Shown one piece after another: positions 2,394 to 14,692 of a stretch of 15,374 nucleotides of DNA. Within the stretch, counting starts at the first letter, position 1, and the number at the start of each line of letters is the position of its first letter. The DNA is taken from assembly GCA_042217695.1 (NCBI GenBank), contig JBDGSE010000027.1, positions 1 to 15,374 of the forward strand, in the 5' to 3' direction. A program made the translations under genes and the position numbers. This DNA is from Candidatus Nanohaloarchaea archaeon. Its GTDB lineage: Archaea > Nanohalarchaeota > Nanosalinia > Nanosalinales > Nanosalinaceae. Under the pieces are notes generated by a model, which did not search any database, had not been told where the DNA came from, and saw nothing but the letters and a program-made list of their open reading frames with translations.

Positions 2394-2470
2394 ATGAACA
2401 GTTATGAACAATCGATGTGTAAAAACGTTGAACAGTCTGTAAAACACACGTATGCCGAACATTTATAAAG
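2394..2470 (+). promoter_or_regulatory. ftsZ-locus promoter: TATA box with upstream direct repeats
   Basis: TTTATAAA at 2462-2469; TGAACA at 2395, 2405, 2429, CGAACA at 2456; TGTAAAA at 2418 and 2438. Confidence 0.55.
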
Positions 2471-2503
2471 GAGCTTAGAAAATGTTAGATTAGACTAATA
2501 CTA

Positions 2504-2691
2504 GTTTCAGTTCGTGTTGGGCCACGAACCTGAAACGACTTCAAACTCGTTTGGGCGCGAGTTTGAGACACGCTTTCGGGCGACTTGAATTGGGCTTCAA
2601 GTCAACCGAGTTGGGCTAACGTATTGGGCATTCGATTGGGCTATCTTCTAAGGTAGAGTTACCTACGCCGACTTAAAAAGGTTAGGTGTAG
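2504..2691 (+). ncRNA. Structured leader or sRNA with repeated UUGGGC hairpin loops upstream of ftsZ
   Basis: Three stems with different sequences close an identical TTGGGC loop (2504-2536, 2541-2566, 2582-2603); further TTGGGC at 2611, 2624, 2636 and TCGGGC at 2576; extra hairpin 2663-2691; no ORF. Confidence 0.7.
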
Positions 2692-2715: not shown

Positions 2716-3780
2716 ATGGAATCCATCATAAACAACAACTCGAAAACCGAAGAAGAGCTTCAAAACCTCGAAGATGTTAAAGACGCAAAGATACTAGTTG
2801 TCGGAGCAGGAGGAGCTGGTAACAACCAGATAACCAGGATACAGAAGAAGGATGTCGAGGGCGCCGAAACCGTCGCCATCAACACCGACAAACAGCACCT
2901 GGAGATGTCCTCCGCCGACAGGAAAATACTCGTAGGGAAAGACCTTACCAGAGGCCTTGGCGCCGGCGGCCACCCGGAAAAGGGCGAAAGGGCCGCTGAA
3001 GAGAACCGGGCCGAACTCCGCTCGCTGTTCAAGGACGCCGACATGGTGTTCCTCACCGCGGGACTCGGAGGCGGAACCGGTACAGGAGTCTCTCCGGTAC
3101 TGGCGGAGATAGCCAAGAAGGAGGGATGCATTGTCATCGGAACAGTAACGATGCCTTTCAGCATAGAAGGCGCCAGGATGAGCAAGGCGGAAGAAGGCCT
3201 CTACAAACTCAGACAGCACGTTGACACCGCAATCGTGATCGAAAACGACAGGCTACTGGACATCGCGGGTGACATGCCTCTCGATCAGGCGTTCGGTGTC
3301 GCGGACGAACTGATAACAACGATGATCAAGGGCATCACGGAGACGATCTCCAAGCCATCCCTGGTCAACCTGGACTACGCAGATGTCCAGGCAGTCATGA
3401 ACCAGGGTGGCGTGGCCGTGGTAGGATACGGCGAGTCGAACACCGCAAACAAGGGCGAGGAAGCGATCCATGAAGCCCTCTCCAACCCGCTGCTCGACGT
3501 AGAGTTCGAGGGAGCAAACGGTGCACTCCTGCATGTCGCGGGAGGCGAGGACCTGACCCTCAACGAAATCAACGACGTAGGGCAGATGGTCACGGACAAG
3601 CTCGATAGCGGCGCCCAGGTGATCTGGGGCGCACGGATTCGCGAAGAACTTCAGGGCAAACTCCAGGTAATCTCCATAATCACGGGGGTCGAATCACCCT
3701 ACGTGCTTGGAGAGGTAGAGGAAGAGGAAACCGAAGTTACAGGTGACGTCAACGACCTGGGACTGGAGATAGTCAAGTAA
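2716..3780 (+). CDS. ftsZ: Cell division protein FtsZ (FtsZ2-type)
   Basis: GAGGAGNN, GGGTGTG tubulin signature; TDKQHL, KAEEGL, ETISKPSLVNLDYAD and WGARI resemble archaeal FtsZ2 more than FtsZ1. Confidence 0.97.
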   Translation: MESIINNNSKTEEELQNLEDVKDAKILVVGAGGAGNNQITRIQKKDVEGAETVAINTDKQHLEMSSADRKILVGKDLTRGLGAGGHPEKGERAAEENRAELRSLFKDADMVFLTAGLGGGTGTGVSPVLAEIAKKEGCIVIGTVTMPFSIEGARMSKAEEGLYKLRQHVDTAIVIENDRLLDIAGDMPLDQAFGVADELITTMIKGITETISKPSLVNLDYADVQAVMNQGGVAVVGYGESNTANKGEEAIHEALSNPLLDVEFEGANGALLHVAGGEDLTLNEINDVGQMVTDKLDSGAQVIWGARIREELQGKLQVISIITGVESPYVLGEVEEEETEVTGDVNDLGLEIVK

Positions 3781-3785
3781 AAACG

Positions 3786-3918
3786 ATATTATGGAGGAAG
3801 GCCTCTCGAAATCACCCCCTCCCCCCTTCGATGGCCTTTCCTCCTAAACCATATTAACCGGAAGGCCTCCGCACGATACAAATCACCCCCTCCCCCCTCC
3901 ATTGTGCGGAGGTCTCCG
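3786..3918 (+). ncRNA. Tandem hairpins with identical C-rich loops downstream of ftsZ
   Basis: AAATCACCCCCTCCCCCCT at 3809-3827 and 3880-3898, each mostly or wholly in the loop of a long stem (3793-3844, 3859-3918); G-U pairs favour folding on the + strand. Confidence 0.7.
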
Positions 3919-3982
3919 TGTACTCTTATTTCATCTTCTTTACAGCCAAAAACGGTTTAACTGTCGAAACAAGTTTTAAACC

Positions 3983-4551: not shown

Positions 4552-5055
4552 ATGAAGGCGCCAATATGCAACGTATGTCTTAAGAGCGATGTTCTCTGCA
4601 GCAATTGCGAGGAGAAGCTGGAGAACGGAGAGATCACGGAGCTAGACGTCCGTGTCTCCCGGATCCTTCAGGACCTCAGCAACGAGTACGGCTCCCTCAG
4701 AGACTCGGAGATCATCCGGGTCTACGACACCGATAACGTGGTCGTGATAGTGACCGCGGAAGGCGACGGGGCCAAGGTCGTCGGACGCAGCGGAGACATC
4801 GTGAAGGAGCTCGCCGACAGGATCGAGAAGTCTATCCGGGTAGTGGAGAAGTCGCCCGAGGACCGTGAAGTCATCAAGGGGCTTCTCTCTCCGGCAGAGA
4901 TAGAGTCGATCAACACGGTTTTCTCGCCGGAAGGCCAGCACAAGAAGGTCGTGGTAGACGAGGACTACCGCGGAAAAATCAACCTCGACACGGATGAGTT
5001 CGAGGAACTGATCGAGAAGATAACCGGCGAGCGGTACGAGCTCTCCTTCGAATAA
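4552..5055 (+). CDS. Archaeal NusA-like KH-domain protein with N-terminal Cys4 motif
   Basis: PICNVCLKSDVLCSNC N-terminus; KH-like VVGRSG..VKEL...IEKSIRVVE; TATTTAA about 25-30 nt upstream. Confidence 0.82.
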   Translation: MKAPICNVCLKSDVLCSNCEEKLENGEITELDVRVSRILQDLSNEYGSLRDSEIIRVYDTDNVVVIVTAEGDGAKVVGRSGDIVKELADRIEKSIRVVEKSPEDREVIKGLLSPAEIESINTVFSPEGQHKKVVVDEDYRGKINLDTDEFEELIEKITGERYELSFE

Positions 5056-11269: not shown

Positions 11270-14200
11270 TCAGGGCAGCGAGTAGAAGTACACCGTGGCC
11301 GCCACCAGTACAACAGTGACAAGCTGAAGGTAGCCCATCCCCGGCACCGATCTCTCCAGGGAGCGGAAGTCTGTCACGTAGACCGGGAACCTGTCAACGT
11401 TCTTTGTGCCGAGCATAGTGTTTCTCGTGATAACTCTCAGAGTCTTTTCGCCGTTACTGGTGGGAGAGACACCTATCTGGAAGCTTTTCTCCTCACCCCC
11501 CGACAGGGTGTAAGAGATGCTGTCCTGATCGTTCTTCAGGAACTTGGCGTTCACCCCTGCAAGAGATGTCTGCAACTGTTTCGATTCGCTGACAAGGTTT
11601 TCGACCTCCAGGGTGATATAGGCGGTGCGGCCCGTCGATGTGATGATGGTAGAGTACCTGTACCTCAGGTCCGTCCTGGTCCTGTAACTCTGGGAAGTCA
11701 CCTTAACGAACTTCCATGTCGCACTTGTCGCGTTCTCGTAGCTGTCACTCACCTTCACAAACCATTCGTAAGTCTGGCCGACCTCCACAGACCCCCAGGA
11801 GGCATCAGCTATGCCGGAGTTCAGTTCCTCGTAGCCAAGGAGATCGCCCGTGTCCTGGTTGAAGAACCAGACCTTCAACGGGGCGTCCTCCATGTCGGAG
11901 ACATCCACCTGGAGATCGATAACGTCTCCCGATACACTGGAATCATCAGCGGGCGAGACAAGGTTTATGATCGGTCTCTGGTTCGGTATACGGTGGATCG
12001 ACGAGGCCGAACCTGTCGCACCGTGGTCGTCGTAAACGGTGAGATCCACGGTTATCGGCTCCATTACCTCGAAGCCCGGATAGACGCTGGAACTGGTGTT
12101 TATCTCGCTGTAACTGCAGCGGCCCTGGTCCGTTTCCCCGTAGTTCACGTTTACAGACACGGTCCTGGAATAACTGTTGCCGTCCGTATCTGTGAAGGTG
12201 TACTCGCAGCGGTCCAGCTCAAACCTGTTCGCGTCCGAGTCGTAGACCACCGCGGAGACGTTAAACGCATGCCGCGTGGAGTAGTTGGAATAGAAGAAAC
12301 TGGATACCGAGGGCGCGTGGTTGGGGAAAGTGTTCTTCCCGGTCTCTGTCGCTGTATTGCCCTCTGAATCGGTGGCCGTCACCGTCACATCCGTCGTGGC
12401 AAGGTGTGCCCAGGGCCCATCCCGGTAGTTCACCCCGTCATAGATGCACTGGGCCTCACTCGAGTTTCCATAGGCAGTATCTATGTTCATCGAGTAGGAG
12501 ACGGTATTGCCTCCCGACGTTGCATCCATGCCACAGCTCTGGATATCGCCCTCGCCGTCGGGATCGTAAACGTTCGCTGCAACGCTGTAACTGTGTTCAG
12601 TGGTGGAGTTCGTGAAAACCAGGGAGAGGATCTTCGGCGGCTTGTTGCACGTCAGGGTGAAGGTCCAGGTCGAACTGGTCACGGTCGTGGAACCGTCATC
12701 CGCCTCCACGTACCAGTTGTACGTTTTCCCGCACTGAAGGTTGCTCCACTCTACAGATGCGGTCCCCGAACCGGAGACTGTGTCCGTGCCGATCAGGCTC
12801 GTGCTCTTCCGAAGATTCATCCTGTATAGCTGGGAGCGGTCCCACCATTCGTTAAGGGAGTTTTCCATGTCGCTCGCCATGTAGAACCGGGTCAGTTCGT
12901 TTGGGGCGTTGACAGAGAACTGGCCGTTCCACTCAAAGTTTGAGCTGTCCTGGCCGCAGCTGAAACTGTCGTAGGCCCCATCGTTGTCGCACCTGAAGAC
13001 GTACTGGTTGCCGGAGGAGTCTTCCGCCCAGAAGTATACTCCCGAGGCTTCGTAGGACTCTCCCCGGAAATGCAGGTCGAGTACCAGGTTGCCGTTGTTC
13101 GGAGGCAGGTTCTTTGAGTACTTCATCCTTCCATCACTGTCTGACTCCGCCCACCTGAGATAGTTGGACTGGTGGTCGTACATCAGGCCCCAGTCGTAGT
13201 CCTGGTTCATCCTGTCCCTGAGGTCTGTAAGGGTGTCTCCCCTGCTCTCCCTGTCCCACCGGAGTATGCTTTTACGGTAGAACCTGCTGGCCGGCACGTA
13301 GGAATAACTTGAATCCGAGGGCTTCATCCAGAAAAGCTTGTAATCATCTCCACCGCCACGGTCGCTCATCCTGTACATAAACGAGTGATAACCCTTGCTG
13401 AGGCTGACCTGACCGTTGTAGCTCTTGCAGCTCCCGCAGTCACCGTGGGAGCCGTACCATGAAGCAACCCGGTTACCCGACGATACGCTGTCGCAGTGGT
13501 TCATCGCCGTGGAGGGAACATCGATGAAGAAGTCGCTGGCGTCATCCGAATCCGTGGCAAAACTGTATGTTCCCGACTCCGGAGCATAGATATAACCCGT
13601 TATACACGTCGAGTAGGTATCCGAAGAGGCGAAAAGGTTGCATTCCTCGCCGTCGCCACAGTCGATCCTGTCCTGGACCGTTTTCTCGCCAAATTTTCCA
13701 GTGACCTGGCTCCCATCATCCATCCTGGCCGAGAGCTCCGACATCGAATTCGCGCCATCCGAACGACTATGGTCCCACTGCATAACCTTCATACCCTGGA
13801 CGTAGCCCGTGGAACCTCCCGCGTTGTAGAATTTCACGTCAACACTGTCCCCGTTGGAGTCGGAGACATCCACCTTTAACTGGGGGTTCTGGGAGTTCAC
13901 AGGGCTGGTGCTTGTTGCCTGGGCGGGCCTTGGGTTGGAGACGGAGGGTGGAGAATTGCACTGTTCGGACCAGGAAAGCGTAGTCCTCAACCCAAGCACG
14001 TCTGCTTCACCTCCGCTGTAGTGGCTTGCCTTGACAGTCAGGTAGTCATCGCTAGCCTCTGAAGTGACATCGTAGGGACTGGAGGGACAGCTCTCCCAGC
14101 CATACACGGGACAGGAATAAGTGTCTCCGTAGATATTCTGGCCGCAGTCGTCTTTGTAGTTGCCGTCTGCATATATATTGGATCTTCCCTCGTAACCTCC

Positions 14201-14692
14201 CAGGTCGCCATCCATACTGACATAGGCCGTTGCAGAGCTCAGGCTACAGCCGTTGGTGATAAAATTGCTGAAAGTTACGCTAGTAGAACACTGATCGCAG
14301 TAGTCGTAACAGGCGGTTCTGGTCTGTGAAGGGTCCATCCACCGGAAAGATTTCATAACTCCTCCGCTCGGAGTCCTGACACGTACGAAAGAAGTGTACT
14401 CCCTACTTTCGGTCCCGGTCACCTTCCAGGAAGCCTTCCATACCGTTCTGTTCCCGATATCCTGGATTTTCTCCATCCGGATAGTGGTGTTGGAAAGCAT
14501 CAGGTCGACACGCTCTATAGGTTTCTTCGACCTGATCTCGGCTGTGACGTTAAGATAGTTTCCCGGTCCAACTCTGTCTGGTTCATGTGTTATTTCAGTT
14601 ATCCGGGTGGAAAGACCCGGACCCTCTGCCGCAGCGGTCATCGAAGAAAACAATACCAGGAATACCAAGAGCCAGGAGAACTCTAACCTCAT
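11270..14692 (-). CDS. Large cell-surface protein with PA14 domain and Ig-like repeats, putative adhesin/lectin
   Basis: Signal peptide; PA14 motif TGYIYAPESGTYSFATDSDDASDFFID...GQVSLSKGYH...LFW..P...VP; N-x-x-P-initiated Ig-like repeats; Cys pairs; VPGMGY plus TM at the C-terminus. Confidence 0.85.
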   Translation of the reverse strand: MRLEFSWLLVFLVLFSSMTAAAEGPGLSTRITEITHEPDRVGPGNYLNVTAEIRSKKPIERVDLMLSNTTIRMEKIQDIGNRTVWKASWKVTGTESREYTSFVRVRTPSGGVMKSFRWMDPSQTRTACYDYCDQCSTSVTFSNFITNGCSLSSATAYVSMDGDLGGYEGRSNIYADGNYKDDCGQNIYGDTYSCPVYGWESCPSSPYDVTSEASDDYLTVKASHYSGGEADVLGLRTTLSWSEQCNSPPSVSNPRPAQATSTSPVNSQNPQLKVDVSDSNGDSVDVKFYNAGGSTGYVQGMKVMQWDHSRSDGANSMSELSARMDDGSQVTGKFGEKTVQDRIDCGDGEECNLFASSDTYSTCITGYIYAPESGTYSFATDSDDASDFFIDVPSTAMNHCDSVSSGNRVASWYGSHGDCGSCKSYNGQVSLSKGYHSFMYRMSDRGGGDDYKLFWMKPSDSSYSYVPASRFYRKSILRWDRESRGDTLTDLRDRMNQDYDWGLMYDHQSNYLRWAESDSDGRMKYSKNLPPNNGNLVLDLHFRGESYEASGVYFWAEDSSGNQYVFRCDNDGAYDSFSCGQDSSNFEWNGQFSVNAPNELTRFYMASDMENSLNEWWDRSQLYRMNLRKSTSLIGTDTVSGSGTASVEWSNLQCGKTYNWYVEADDGSTTVTSSTWTFTLTCNKPPKILSLVFTNSTTEHSYSVAANVYDPDGEGDIQSCGMDATSGGNTVSYSMNIDTAYGNSSEAQCIYDGVNYRDGPWAHLATTDVTVTATDSEGNTATETGKNTFPNHAPSVSSFFYSNYSTRHAFNVSAVVYDSDANRFELDRCEYTFTDTDGNSYSRTVSVNVNYGETDQGRCSYSEINTSSSVYPGFEVMEPITVDLTVYDDHGATGSASSIHRIPNQRPIINLVSPADDSSVSGDVIDLQVDVSDMEDAPLKVWFFNQDTGDLLGYEELNSGIADASWGSVEVGQTYEWFVKVSDSYENATSATWKFVKVTSQSYRTRTDLRYRYSTIITSTGRTAYITLEVENLVSESKQLQTSLAGVNAKFLKNDQDSISYTLSGGEEKSFQIGVSPTSNGEKTLRVITRNTMLGTKNVDRFPVYVTDFRSLERSVPGMGYLQLVTVVLVAATVYFYSLP

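Follow-up and report, generated by a model that had tools for sequence, protein, structure and literature searches.

In the CsrB and RsmZ RNAs, as well as in the leaders bound by CsrA, one short G-rich word is carried in many copies, in loops on unrelated stems and in single-stranded linkers. Repetition of a short word is likewise found in the TRAP-bound trp leader of Bacillus, which holds 11 spaced GAG/UAG triplets, and in the YCAY clusters bound by Nova. Here an array of hairpins is described that display an identical UUGGGC loop upstream of the division gene ftsZ, located on a stretch of 15,374 nucleotides (contig JBDGSE010000027.1; the window, i.e. the whole stretch that was analysed) from a Candidatus Nanohaloarchaea archaeon, whose phylum, Nanohaloarchaeota, belongs to DPANN. 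As in the Csr/Rsm RNAs, a short G-rich word is repeated in hairpin loops and multivalent binding of one small regulator would be expected; the word, however, is GGGC (GGGA or GGCG in some lineages) and not GGA, which occurs only within the GGGA of nine genomes, and the element occurs in an archaeon, is tied to one gene as its leader and has no relation to these RNAs in sequence or in Rfam. A search for CsrA (PF02599), positive in the controls E. coli, B. subtilis and T. maritima, detected the protein in none of the phylum's 70 genomes. Neither the window nor the loci of 11 relatives matched an Rfam family at gathering score, and relaxation to E <= 10 within 2300-2800 yielded only a chance match to a long non-coding RNA. 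The comparison with CsrB/RsmZ, as drawn in an earlier sequence-only reading of this DNA, holds for the design of constant loops on variable stems and breaks down for the GGA word, for CsrA and for an Rfam match; the analogy is one of design only, as every tested defining feature fails. The same reading had not recognised the array as a described family, with which the Rfam result agrees, and in the portions of the literature covered on Nanohaloarchaea ftsZ, on Nanohaloarchaeota non-coding RNA and on UUGGGC no description of the element was found. Likeness to the TRAP and Nova systems lies in a short word repeated at variable spacing, as read by a ring-shaped or multi-domain protein; there the words are single-stranded, whereas here they are displayed in loops. 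For the icaR mRNA of Staphylococcus aureus it was reported that UCCCCUG in the 3' untranslated region (UTR) pairs with the Shine-Dalgarno region in the 5' UTR (PMC3868564). Regarding ftsZ genes, Darnell et al. reported cdrS and ftsZ2 to be co-transcribed and CdrS to be found throughout the major archaeal groups, DPANN excepted (PMC7439475). Like the cdrS-ftsZ2 operon, the present locus has a short conserved regulatory unit directly upstream of an FtsZ2-type gene, the ftsZ2 identity being only suggested here; unlike in that operon, where a gene for a ribbon-helix-helix protein is reported (PMC7439475), the unit is a non-coding hairpin array.

The array is a conserved leader feature, located between promoter and start codon of one orthologous gene, on its sense strand and with conserved structure. 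Within the window it occupies the spacer of 403 bp between gatC (minus strand, 2034-2312) and ftsZ, and the coordinates of its parts are compiled in Table 1. Three hairpins (H1 to H3) with identical UUGGGC loops on differing stems are present upstream of ftsZ as read before, and a count of TTGGGC-in-hairpin sites across the source genome (G000; 757,484 bp in 44 contigs, 54.7% G+C), which the sequence-only reading had proposed, returned only these three: among 67 copies on both strands no others are flanked by stems of at least 7 bp (3/67). The stem of H2, given before as 2541-2566, spans 2540-2567 and includes a U.G closing pair, and the three additional copies of the word as well as the hairpin at 2663-2691 were found where they had been placed. 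The UUCG mini-hairpin proposed between H2 and H3 can be formed by the sequence but is not conserved, its region consisting mostly of gaps in the relatives (alignment A1, described below); some of the sites that match the 2611-2641 copies are hairpin loops in relatives. The window as a whole holds 7 copies of TTGGGC as compared with 6.8 expected; six of these seven are clustered on one strand within 125 nt (2517-2641), where the genome-wide number leads to an expectation of about 0.006 per 125 nt of one strand, and their spacings are irregular (34, 39, 21, 13 and 12 nt). A loose genome-wide scan for hairpins with a GGG loop gave 308 matches and no second cluster, the scan being overly permissive. 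An apparent avoidance of TTGGGC (rank approximately 200 of 4096) was dropped, as lower-order composition mostly explains the rarity of the word (observed/expected 0.81). In line with the earlier description of the array as free of open reading frames, none of more than 28 aa was found in 2480-2715.

For the comparison with relatives, 70 genomes of the phylum were sampled, which represent one order with five families and are mostly metagenome bins, and the upstream regions of orthologous ftsZ were collected from 62 of them; all comparative counts are within Nanohaloarchaeota. Of 24 further genomes from the same family, 18 match the spacer at the DNA level, as against none of 16 genomes from the remaining families. 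Its best-preserved part is 2646-2702, with 84-90% identity between genera, the same range being found for the block at 2646-2662, which contains an invariant TTCTA and is unique in the genome. Among 19 loci of the family, 15 carry four to six copies of TTGGGC and 18 carry at least two, all of them on the sense strand, and G-loop hairpins are found upstream of orthologous ftsZ in all five families (62 genomes); a hairpin census made without preselection of a motif was noisy. The 330 nt preceding the ATG hold 250 GGGC sites in the 62 leaders taken together, and 179 of these are located in loops with a closing stem of five or more uninterrupted pairs; an equally long coding segment gives 1 of 48, and the reverse complement 1 of 6. 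The inspection of relatives' ftsZ upstream regions, suggested along with the original description, bore it out in that the loops are conserved phylum-wide and the stems covary. The phylum possesses two FtsZ paralogs that are about 50% identical, and upstream of the second paralog TTGGGC is absent in 7 of 7 loci, promoter and leader being ordinary there. When scored against M. jannaschii FtsZ homolog 1, the leader-bearing ftsZ reaches 357 bits and the other paralog 418 bits, which suggests the former to be the FtsZ2-like copy; the ftsZ2 label used in the sequence-only reading is made plausible by the lower score and is unproven.

Table 1. Positions of leader, gene and trailer features, counted from the first nucleotide of the window
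Feature	Position	Strand	Remarks
Distal promoter, purine-rich BRE-like (B recognition element) CGAACA and TATA box TTTATAAA (2462-2469)	2456-2469	+	35 nt before H1
Predicted transcription start T-A	2491-2492	+	22-23 nt past the TATA box; preceded by a conserved AAATG word
H1, GTTTCAGTTCGTG-TTGGGC-CACGAA(C)CTGAAAC	2504-2536	+	loop UUGGGC 2517-2522; 13 bp with one bulged C
H2	2540-2567	+	loop UUGGGC 2551-2556; 11-bp stem including the U.G closing pair
Putative mini-hairpin CGCU-UUCG-GGCG	2571-2582	+	contains a further GGGC
H3, GACTTGAA-TTGGGC-TTCAAGTC	2582-2603	+	loop UUGGGC 2590-2595; 8-bp stem
Three further UUGGGC	2611, 2624, 2636 (to 2641)	+	12-13 nt apart; without strong hairpins here
Conserved block UUCUAAGGUAGAGUUAC	2646-2662	+	small UUCU/AGAR stem predicted
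A-box hairpin, stem CUACGCC/GGUGUAG, loop GACUUAAAAAGGUUA (15 nt)	2663-2691	+	about 25 nt before the ATG
ftsZ (354 aa)	2716-3780	+	Pfam Tubulin and FtsZ_C, TIGR00065; the phylum's more divergent FtsZ paralog (of two)
3' UTR hairpin 1	3793-3844	+	loop with C-rich CCCCCUCCCCCC 3815-3826; conserved in relatives
3' UTR hairpin 2, stem CCUCCGCAC/GUGCGGAGG	3859-3918	+	loop with the same C-rich word 3886-3897

The predicted fold has an energy of -76.9 kcal/mol as compared with -62.2 +/- 4.8 kcal/mol for shuffled sequences (z = -3.1; 0 of 200 shuffles as good); as the reverse strand also folds strongly (z = -4.1), fold energy alone cannot name the strand. Covariation was followed on a sequence-only MAFFT alignment of 19 leaders (A1), on a sequence-only alignment of H2 with 38 distinct rows (A3) and, for H1 and H3, on loop-anchored arms collected by script, two further MAFFT alignments (A2 and A4) having shifted rows and being left unused. 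Rows dropped as misanchored were G022 for H1 and G045 and G001 for H3, and G017 and G011 had no assigned H2. In A1, where H2, H3 and the A-box hairpin were tested, 82.8% of the cells are paired and 15 of 25 pairs show compensatory changes, values for pairing and compensation that 0 of 500 column shuffles reach, and when the partners are slid by one column pairing falls to 38% or less. Taken singly, H1 shows compensatory changes at 8 of 8 stem positions (37 distinct rows, anchored arms), H2 on A3 at 7 of 9 pairs with 85.1% of the cells paired (0 of 500 shuffles as high), H3 at 6 of 8 pairs in A1, with 96.6% of the cells paired in the anchored arms versus 45% after shuffling, and the A-box hairpin within family f1 at 4 of 7 pairs with 84.2% of the cells paired. 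Anchored stems are 89-97% paired, and exchanging the 3' arms at random among the genomes lowers this to 45-61%. Per hairpin, 19-28 distinct 8-nt arms were counted; in these anchored counts hairpins with at least four pairs were preselected, meaning that the inner four are paired by construction and the outer four are informative. For all of these figures it holds that the relatives are non-independent, so that the shuffle controls overstate significance. Without guidance, RNAalifold recovers H1, H2 and H3. Cells with G.U outnumber those with A.C (56 versus 23), and 19 rows close H2 with U.G as compared with 5 that use U-A, which together fits the sense strand, and a functioning of the array as RNA-level structure on this strand is supported by these patterns of substitution. 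A DNA-level element, in which TTGGGC direct repeats or cruciforms would be bound by a transcription factor, could draw on the six same-strand repeats near the promoter and on the folding of both strands; stems kept by compensatory changes and G.U intermediates are, however, not required by double-stranded DNA, the spacing is irregular and the sites lie downstream of the promoter, and such an element is considered very improbable.

A second line of evidence comes from the loop word itself. Most genomes carry loops of the types UUGGGC, CGGGCA or UGGGCA, whereby the GGGC core may shift by one position within the six-base loop. Nine genomes are without any GGGC loop and use (G/U)UGGGA instead; a single-gene FtsZ codon tree unites eight of them, from genera g2 and g18, in one clade and places G011 elsewhere. 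Family f5, represented by a single genome, carries UUGGCG in each of its three loops. All loop copies change together, and have done so at least twice, which argues for a sequence-specific trans-acting partner; neither plain GGG:CCC pairing nor a quadruplex accounts easily for such concerted change. An RNA G-quadruplex, or a potassium sensor made of the GGG tracts, could draw on the presence of at least four such tracts per leader in most genomes and on the high internal potassium expected in these organisms. It meets the further objections that the tracts are enclosed in loops by strong stems, that the GGCG loops of family f5 hold no GGG and that the base following GGG, which a quadruplex does not need, is under concerted selection; it is thus rated as highly improbable. 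Sensing of uncharged tRNA in a T-box-like manner, where UGGN of the loop would pair with NCCA 3' ends, is hardly credible: UGG is common to UUGGGC, GUGGGA and UUGGCG, but CGGGCA loops lack the U, the discriminator base would need to differ between lineages, and no specifier, T-box sequence, Rfam T-box match or terminator was found. The partner could also be a small RNA encoded elsewhere, the loops pairing with its GCCCA-type words, as the concerted loop change suits any sequence-specific partner. Speaking against this proposal, hairpins in G000 with a stem of at least 6 bp and a GCCCAA or CCCAAA loop number five beyond the array's own reverse strand, four of them lying in long open frames and none being clustered; in 10 genomes of the phylum rpl37e and/or a tRNA come after the Sm gene, and no loop-matching small-RNA hairpin was seen there by eye; nor does any rRNA site change along with the loops, so that a small-RNA reader appears quite improbable. 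The rRNAs themselves were rejected as pairing partner: of seven GCCCA sites in the 16S and 23S rRNA of one GGGC genome, none has become UCCCA in both GGGA genomes and CGCCA in f5. As a side observation, an intron-bearing tRNA (UUU anticodon loop) that is missed by ARAGORN was noticed downstream of Sm and rpl37e in G000 (C30; 1940-2130 of the locus); beyond it, part of its 3' half recurs as a second copy, and G016 has several partial copies, resembling integration remnants.

Whether the array belongs to the ftsZ mRNA depends on the extent of the transcript. The sequence-only reading had placed the array about 35 nt past a TATA box, and this box is there at the position given in Table 1; TTTATAAA is invariant in 19 of 19 aligned leaders, and a box of the type RAAC/G-W-TTTATAAA precedes the ATG by 207-328 nt (median 258) in 53 of 62 genomes. 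Archaeal transcription is expected to begin about 22-23 nt past the TATA box, and at this distance the columns T30 and A31 of A1 are nearly invariant; an RNA start near 2492, approximately 12 nt before H1, is predicted. The longest T-run before the ATG is at most 4 in 49 of 53 leaders, which leaves no obvious archaeal terminator between promoter and ftsZ. At the downstream end of the leader, an A-rich box (the A-box; TTAAAAA, 2673-2679) is presented by the last hairpin. It is unique in G000, and of the 58 genomes possessing the box 49 have it flanked by a stem of at least 5 bp, the stems differing between families (CUAYRCC/GGYRUAG in f1, GCGCCG/CGGCGC in f4) while the UUUAAAAAG-type loop is invariant. 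As these stems covary and differ between families, both arms of the A-box hairpin must be transcribed, and as a consequence the functional transcript would run from the distal promoter into ftsZ. The alternative left over from the sequence-only reading is a free sponge RNA. As formulated here, it would be about 200 nt long, be transcribed from the promoter at 2462, end before ftsZ and titrate a regulator as CsrB/RsmZ do, with the A-box acting as second TATA box that drives ftsZ with a short leader. The A-box does resemble a TATA box, is invariant, lies 37-90 nt before the ATG and has a conserved C-A about 22 nt beyond it, and loops together with single-stranded copies of the word are reminiscent of sponge design. 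Yet the absence of a T5+ terminator run in 49 of 53 leaders argues against a separate RNA, as do the covariation of the stems flanking the A-box, which are entirely different in f3 and f4, the lack of an A-rich BRE ahead of the box and the constant position of the element directly upstream of one gene, ftsZ. The sponge is accordingly disfavoured and held to be distinctly unlikely, and on these sequence comparisons the 5' UTR of ftsZ is favoured over it.

The 3' end of the same gene carries two further hairpins (Table 1), the second of which is followed by a T-rich run at 3920-3943. Tracts of at least four C residues are found with a mean of 3.88 per 260-nt trailer (58 genomes) as compared with 0.08 in a coding control, and they are present in all families inspected. 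From this the possibility arises that, within one mRNA, the leader's G-loops and the C-rich 3' UTR loops form kissing contacts at several points (GGG with CCC), which would close the mRNA and tune translation or decay. The arrangement is like that of the icaR mRNA (PMC3868564), a C-rich motif in a long conserved 3' UTR having a G-rich partner within that mRNA's 5' UTR, and unlike it in that several C tracts and several G loops are involved, located far from the ribosome site, and in that co-evolution was not found. In favour of kissing are the two 3' UTR hairpins with CCCCCUCCCCCC in their loops, along with the C tracts in the trailers of all families inspected, the finding that 48 of 160 G-loops have a Watson-Crick complement of at least 5 nt in their own trailer as compared with 7 of 160 in coding sequence, and a mean number of G sites (5.0) that is near the C-tract capacity (5.3). 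However, the complement of the loops to their own trailer (4.11 nt) is hardly distinguishable from that to foreign trailers (4.06 nt), own exceeding other in 27 of 56 cases; the counts of G sites and C tracts are uncorrelated (Spearman 0.10-0.24, p > 0.07); the concerted C-to-A and GGGC-to-GGCG changes of the loops have no counterpart in the trailers, as judged by eye; and only 3 bp are guaranteed. Kissing within the mRNA is therefore regarded as unlikely. Some observations on the C-rich word are added for completeness. In G000, CCCCCUCCCCCC is preceded by AAUCA, which is reminiscent of the 16S 3' end GGAUCACCUCCA of relatives, and the sites of the C-rich word in this genome, 10 in all, show no clear pattern. 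A copy of the form CCUCCGCA...CCCCCUCCCCC is located at C16:16920-16930 of G000, in the spacer upstream of an orc1/cdc6-like gene, and the word may represent a small repeat family or an origin-linked element.

The explanation we prefer, with a probability of roughly 0.55, is that a structured 5' leader serves as multivalent docking platform for a sequence-specific reader that controls FtsZ. According to this proposal the array would be the 5' part of a structured ftsZ mRNA leader of about 225 nt, which would originate from the promoter at 2462-2469 with its predicted start near 2492, display three to six words with a GGGC core (UUGGGC here), mostly as apical loops on freely varying stems, and end, about 25 nt ahead of the start codon, in a second conserved hairpin (the one with the UUUAAAAAG loop). 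One trans-acting reader would bind the repeated loops. This reader, recognising about four unpaired bases, is most likely an RNA-binding protein of oligomeric or multi-domain type, and its binding would set the amount of FtsZ made. We lean towards a control of mRNA stability or of the overall leader fold and not towards direct blocking of the ribosome site, since the array begins about 12 nt inside the predicted 5' end and is 70-200 nt away from the ribosome site. The idea of a multivalent platform, left by the sequence-only reading as either a 5' UTR or a sponge, is thereby carried forward in its first form, the RNA structure, the sense strand and the concerted loops speaking for it. KH domains read about four bases, which makes a Zn-ribbon and KH NusA-like protein (4552-5055, PRK06418-like), encoded downstream of ftsZ, the obvious candidate reader. 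In family f1 its gene lies within approximately 1-2 kb downstream of ftsZ, and it follows ftsZ directly in G008, G058 and G011. An alignment of 21 orthologs contains no column by which the GGGA clade and the GGGC genomes of f1 could be told apart, and the GXXG loop is GRSG in genus g18 (GGGA), the same as in GGGC genomes. Several points weigh against the docking platform: no candidate reader protein emerged from the search, the candidacy of the KH/NusA-like protein being weakened by a synteny confined to f1 and by the lack of a residue that tracks the loop change; the A-box loop resembles a TATA box, and a second promoter would make the array a separate RNA; and the strong fold of the reverse strand, the preselection of anchored hairpins and the relatedness of the genomes, as given above, belong here as well.

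With regard to the surroundings of the array, three words of the type TGAACA(G/A)T were noticed by eye on the plus strand upstream of the ftsZ promoter (2394-2402, 2405-2412 and 2428-2436), relatives carrying inverted TGTTCA-N-TGAACA pairs at this position, as likewise seen by eye; their 9-mers show no genome-wide enrichment. The words probably constitute a transcription-factor site, an operator shared with the divergent gatC. On the minus strand (region 1541-2312) a Metallophos open reading frame, listed as beginning with TTG at 2185, shares about 150 nt with gatC; its real start is probably further downstream, the Pfam match beginning only at residue 53. A protein of 1140 aa, encoded on the minus strand at 11270-14692, has matches to PA14/GLEYA-type sugar-binding domains and is a possible symbiont adhesin. 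A tRNA scan of the window found no tRNA.

The element is a phylum-wide, strongly constrained RNA that sits exactly on a division gene, and it bears on the timing of division in DPANN symbionts. As a simple, mutable recognition word occurs together with natural variants (GGGC, GGGA and GGCG), the leader would be usable as bait for its regulator, and from the variants it can be predicted where the partner's residues or bases must differ. Going further, it is conceivable, albeit doubtful, that in Nanohaloarchaeota an RNA device on both ends of the mRNA takes the place of the CdrS switch in controlling the FtsZ2-type gene, with G-loop leader and C-loop trailer being read by a dedicated, co-evolving RNA-binding factor or kissing under control of that factor; if this were true, a host signal could be linked through that factor to the division of the symbiont, and archaea would gain a first Csr-like multivalent post-transcriptional regulator, one with a defined target. 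The leader would add an archaeal example to the few RNAs that display one loop many times.
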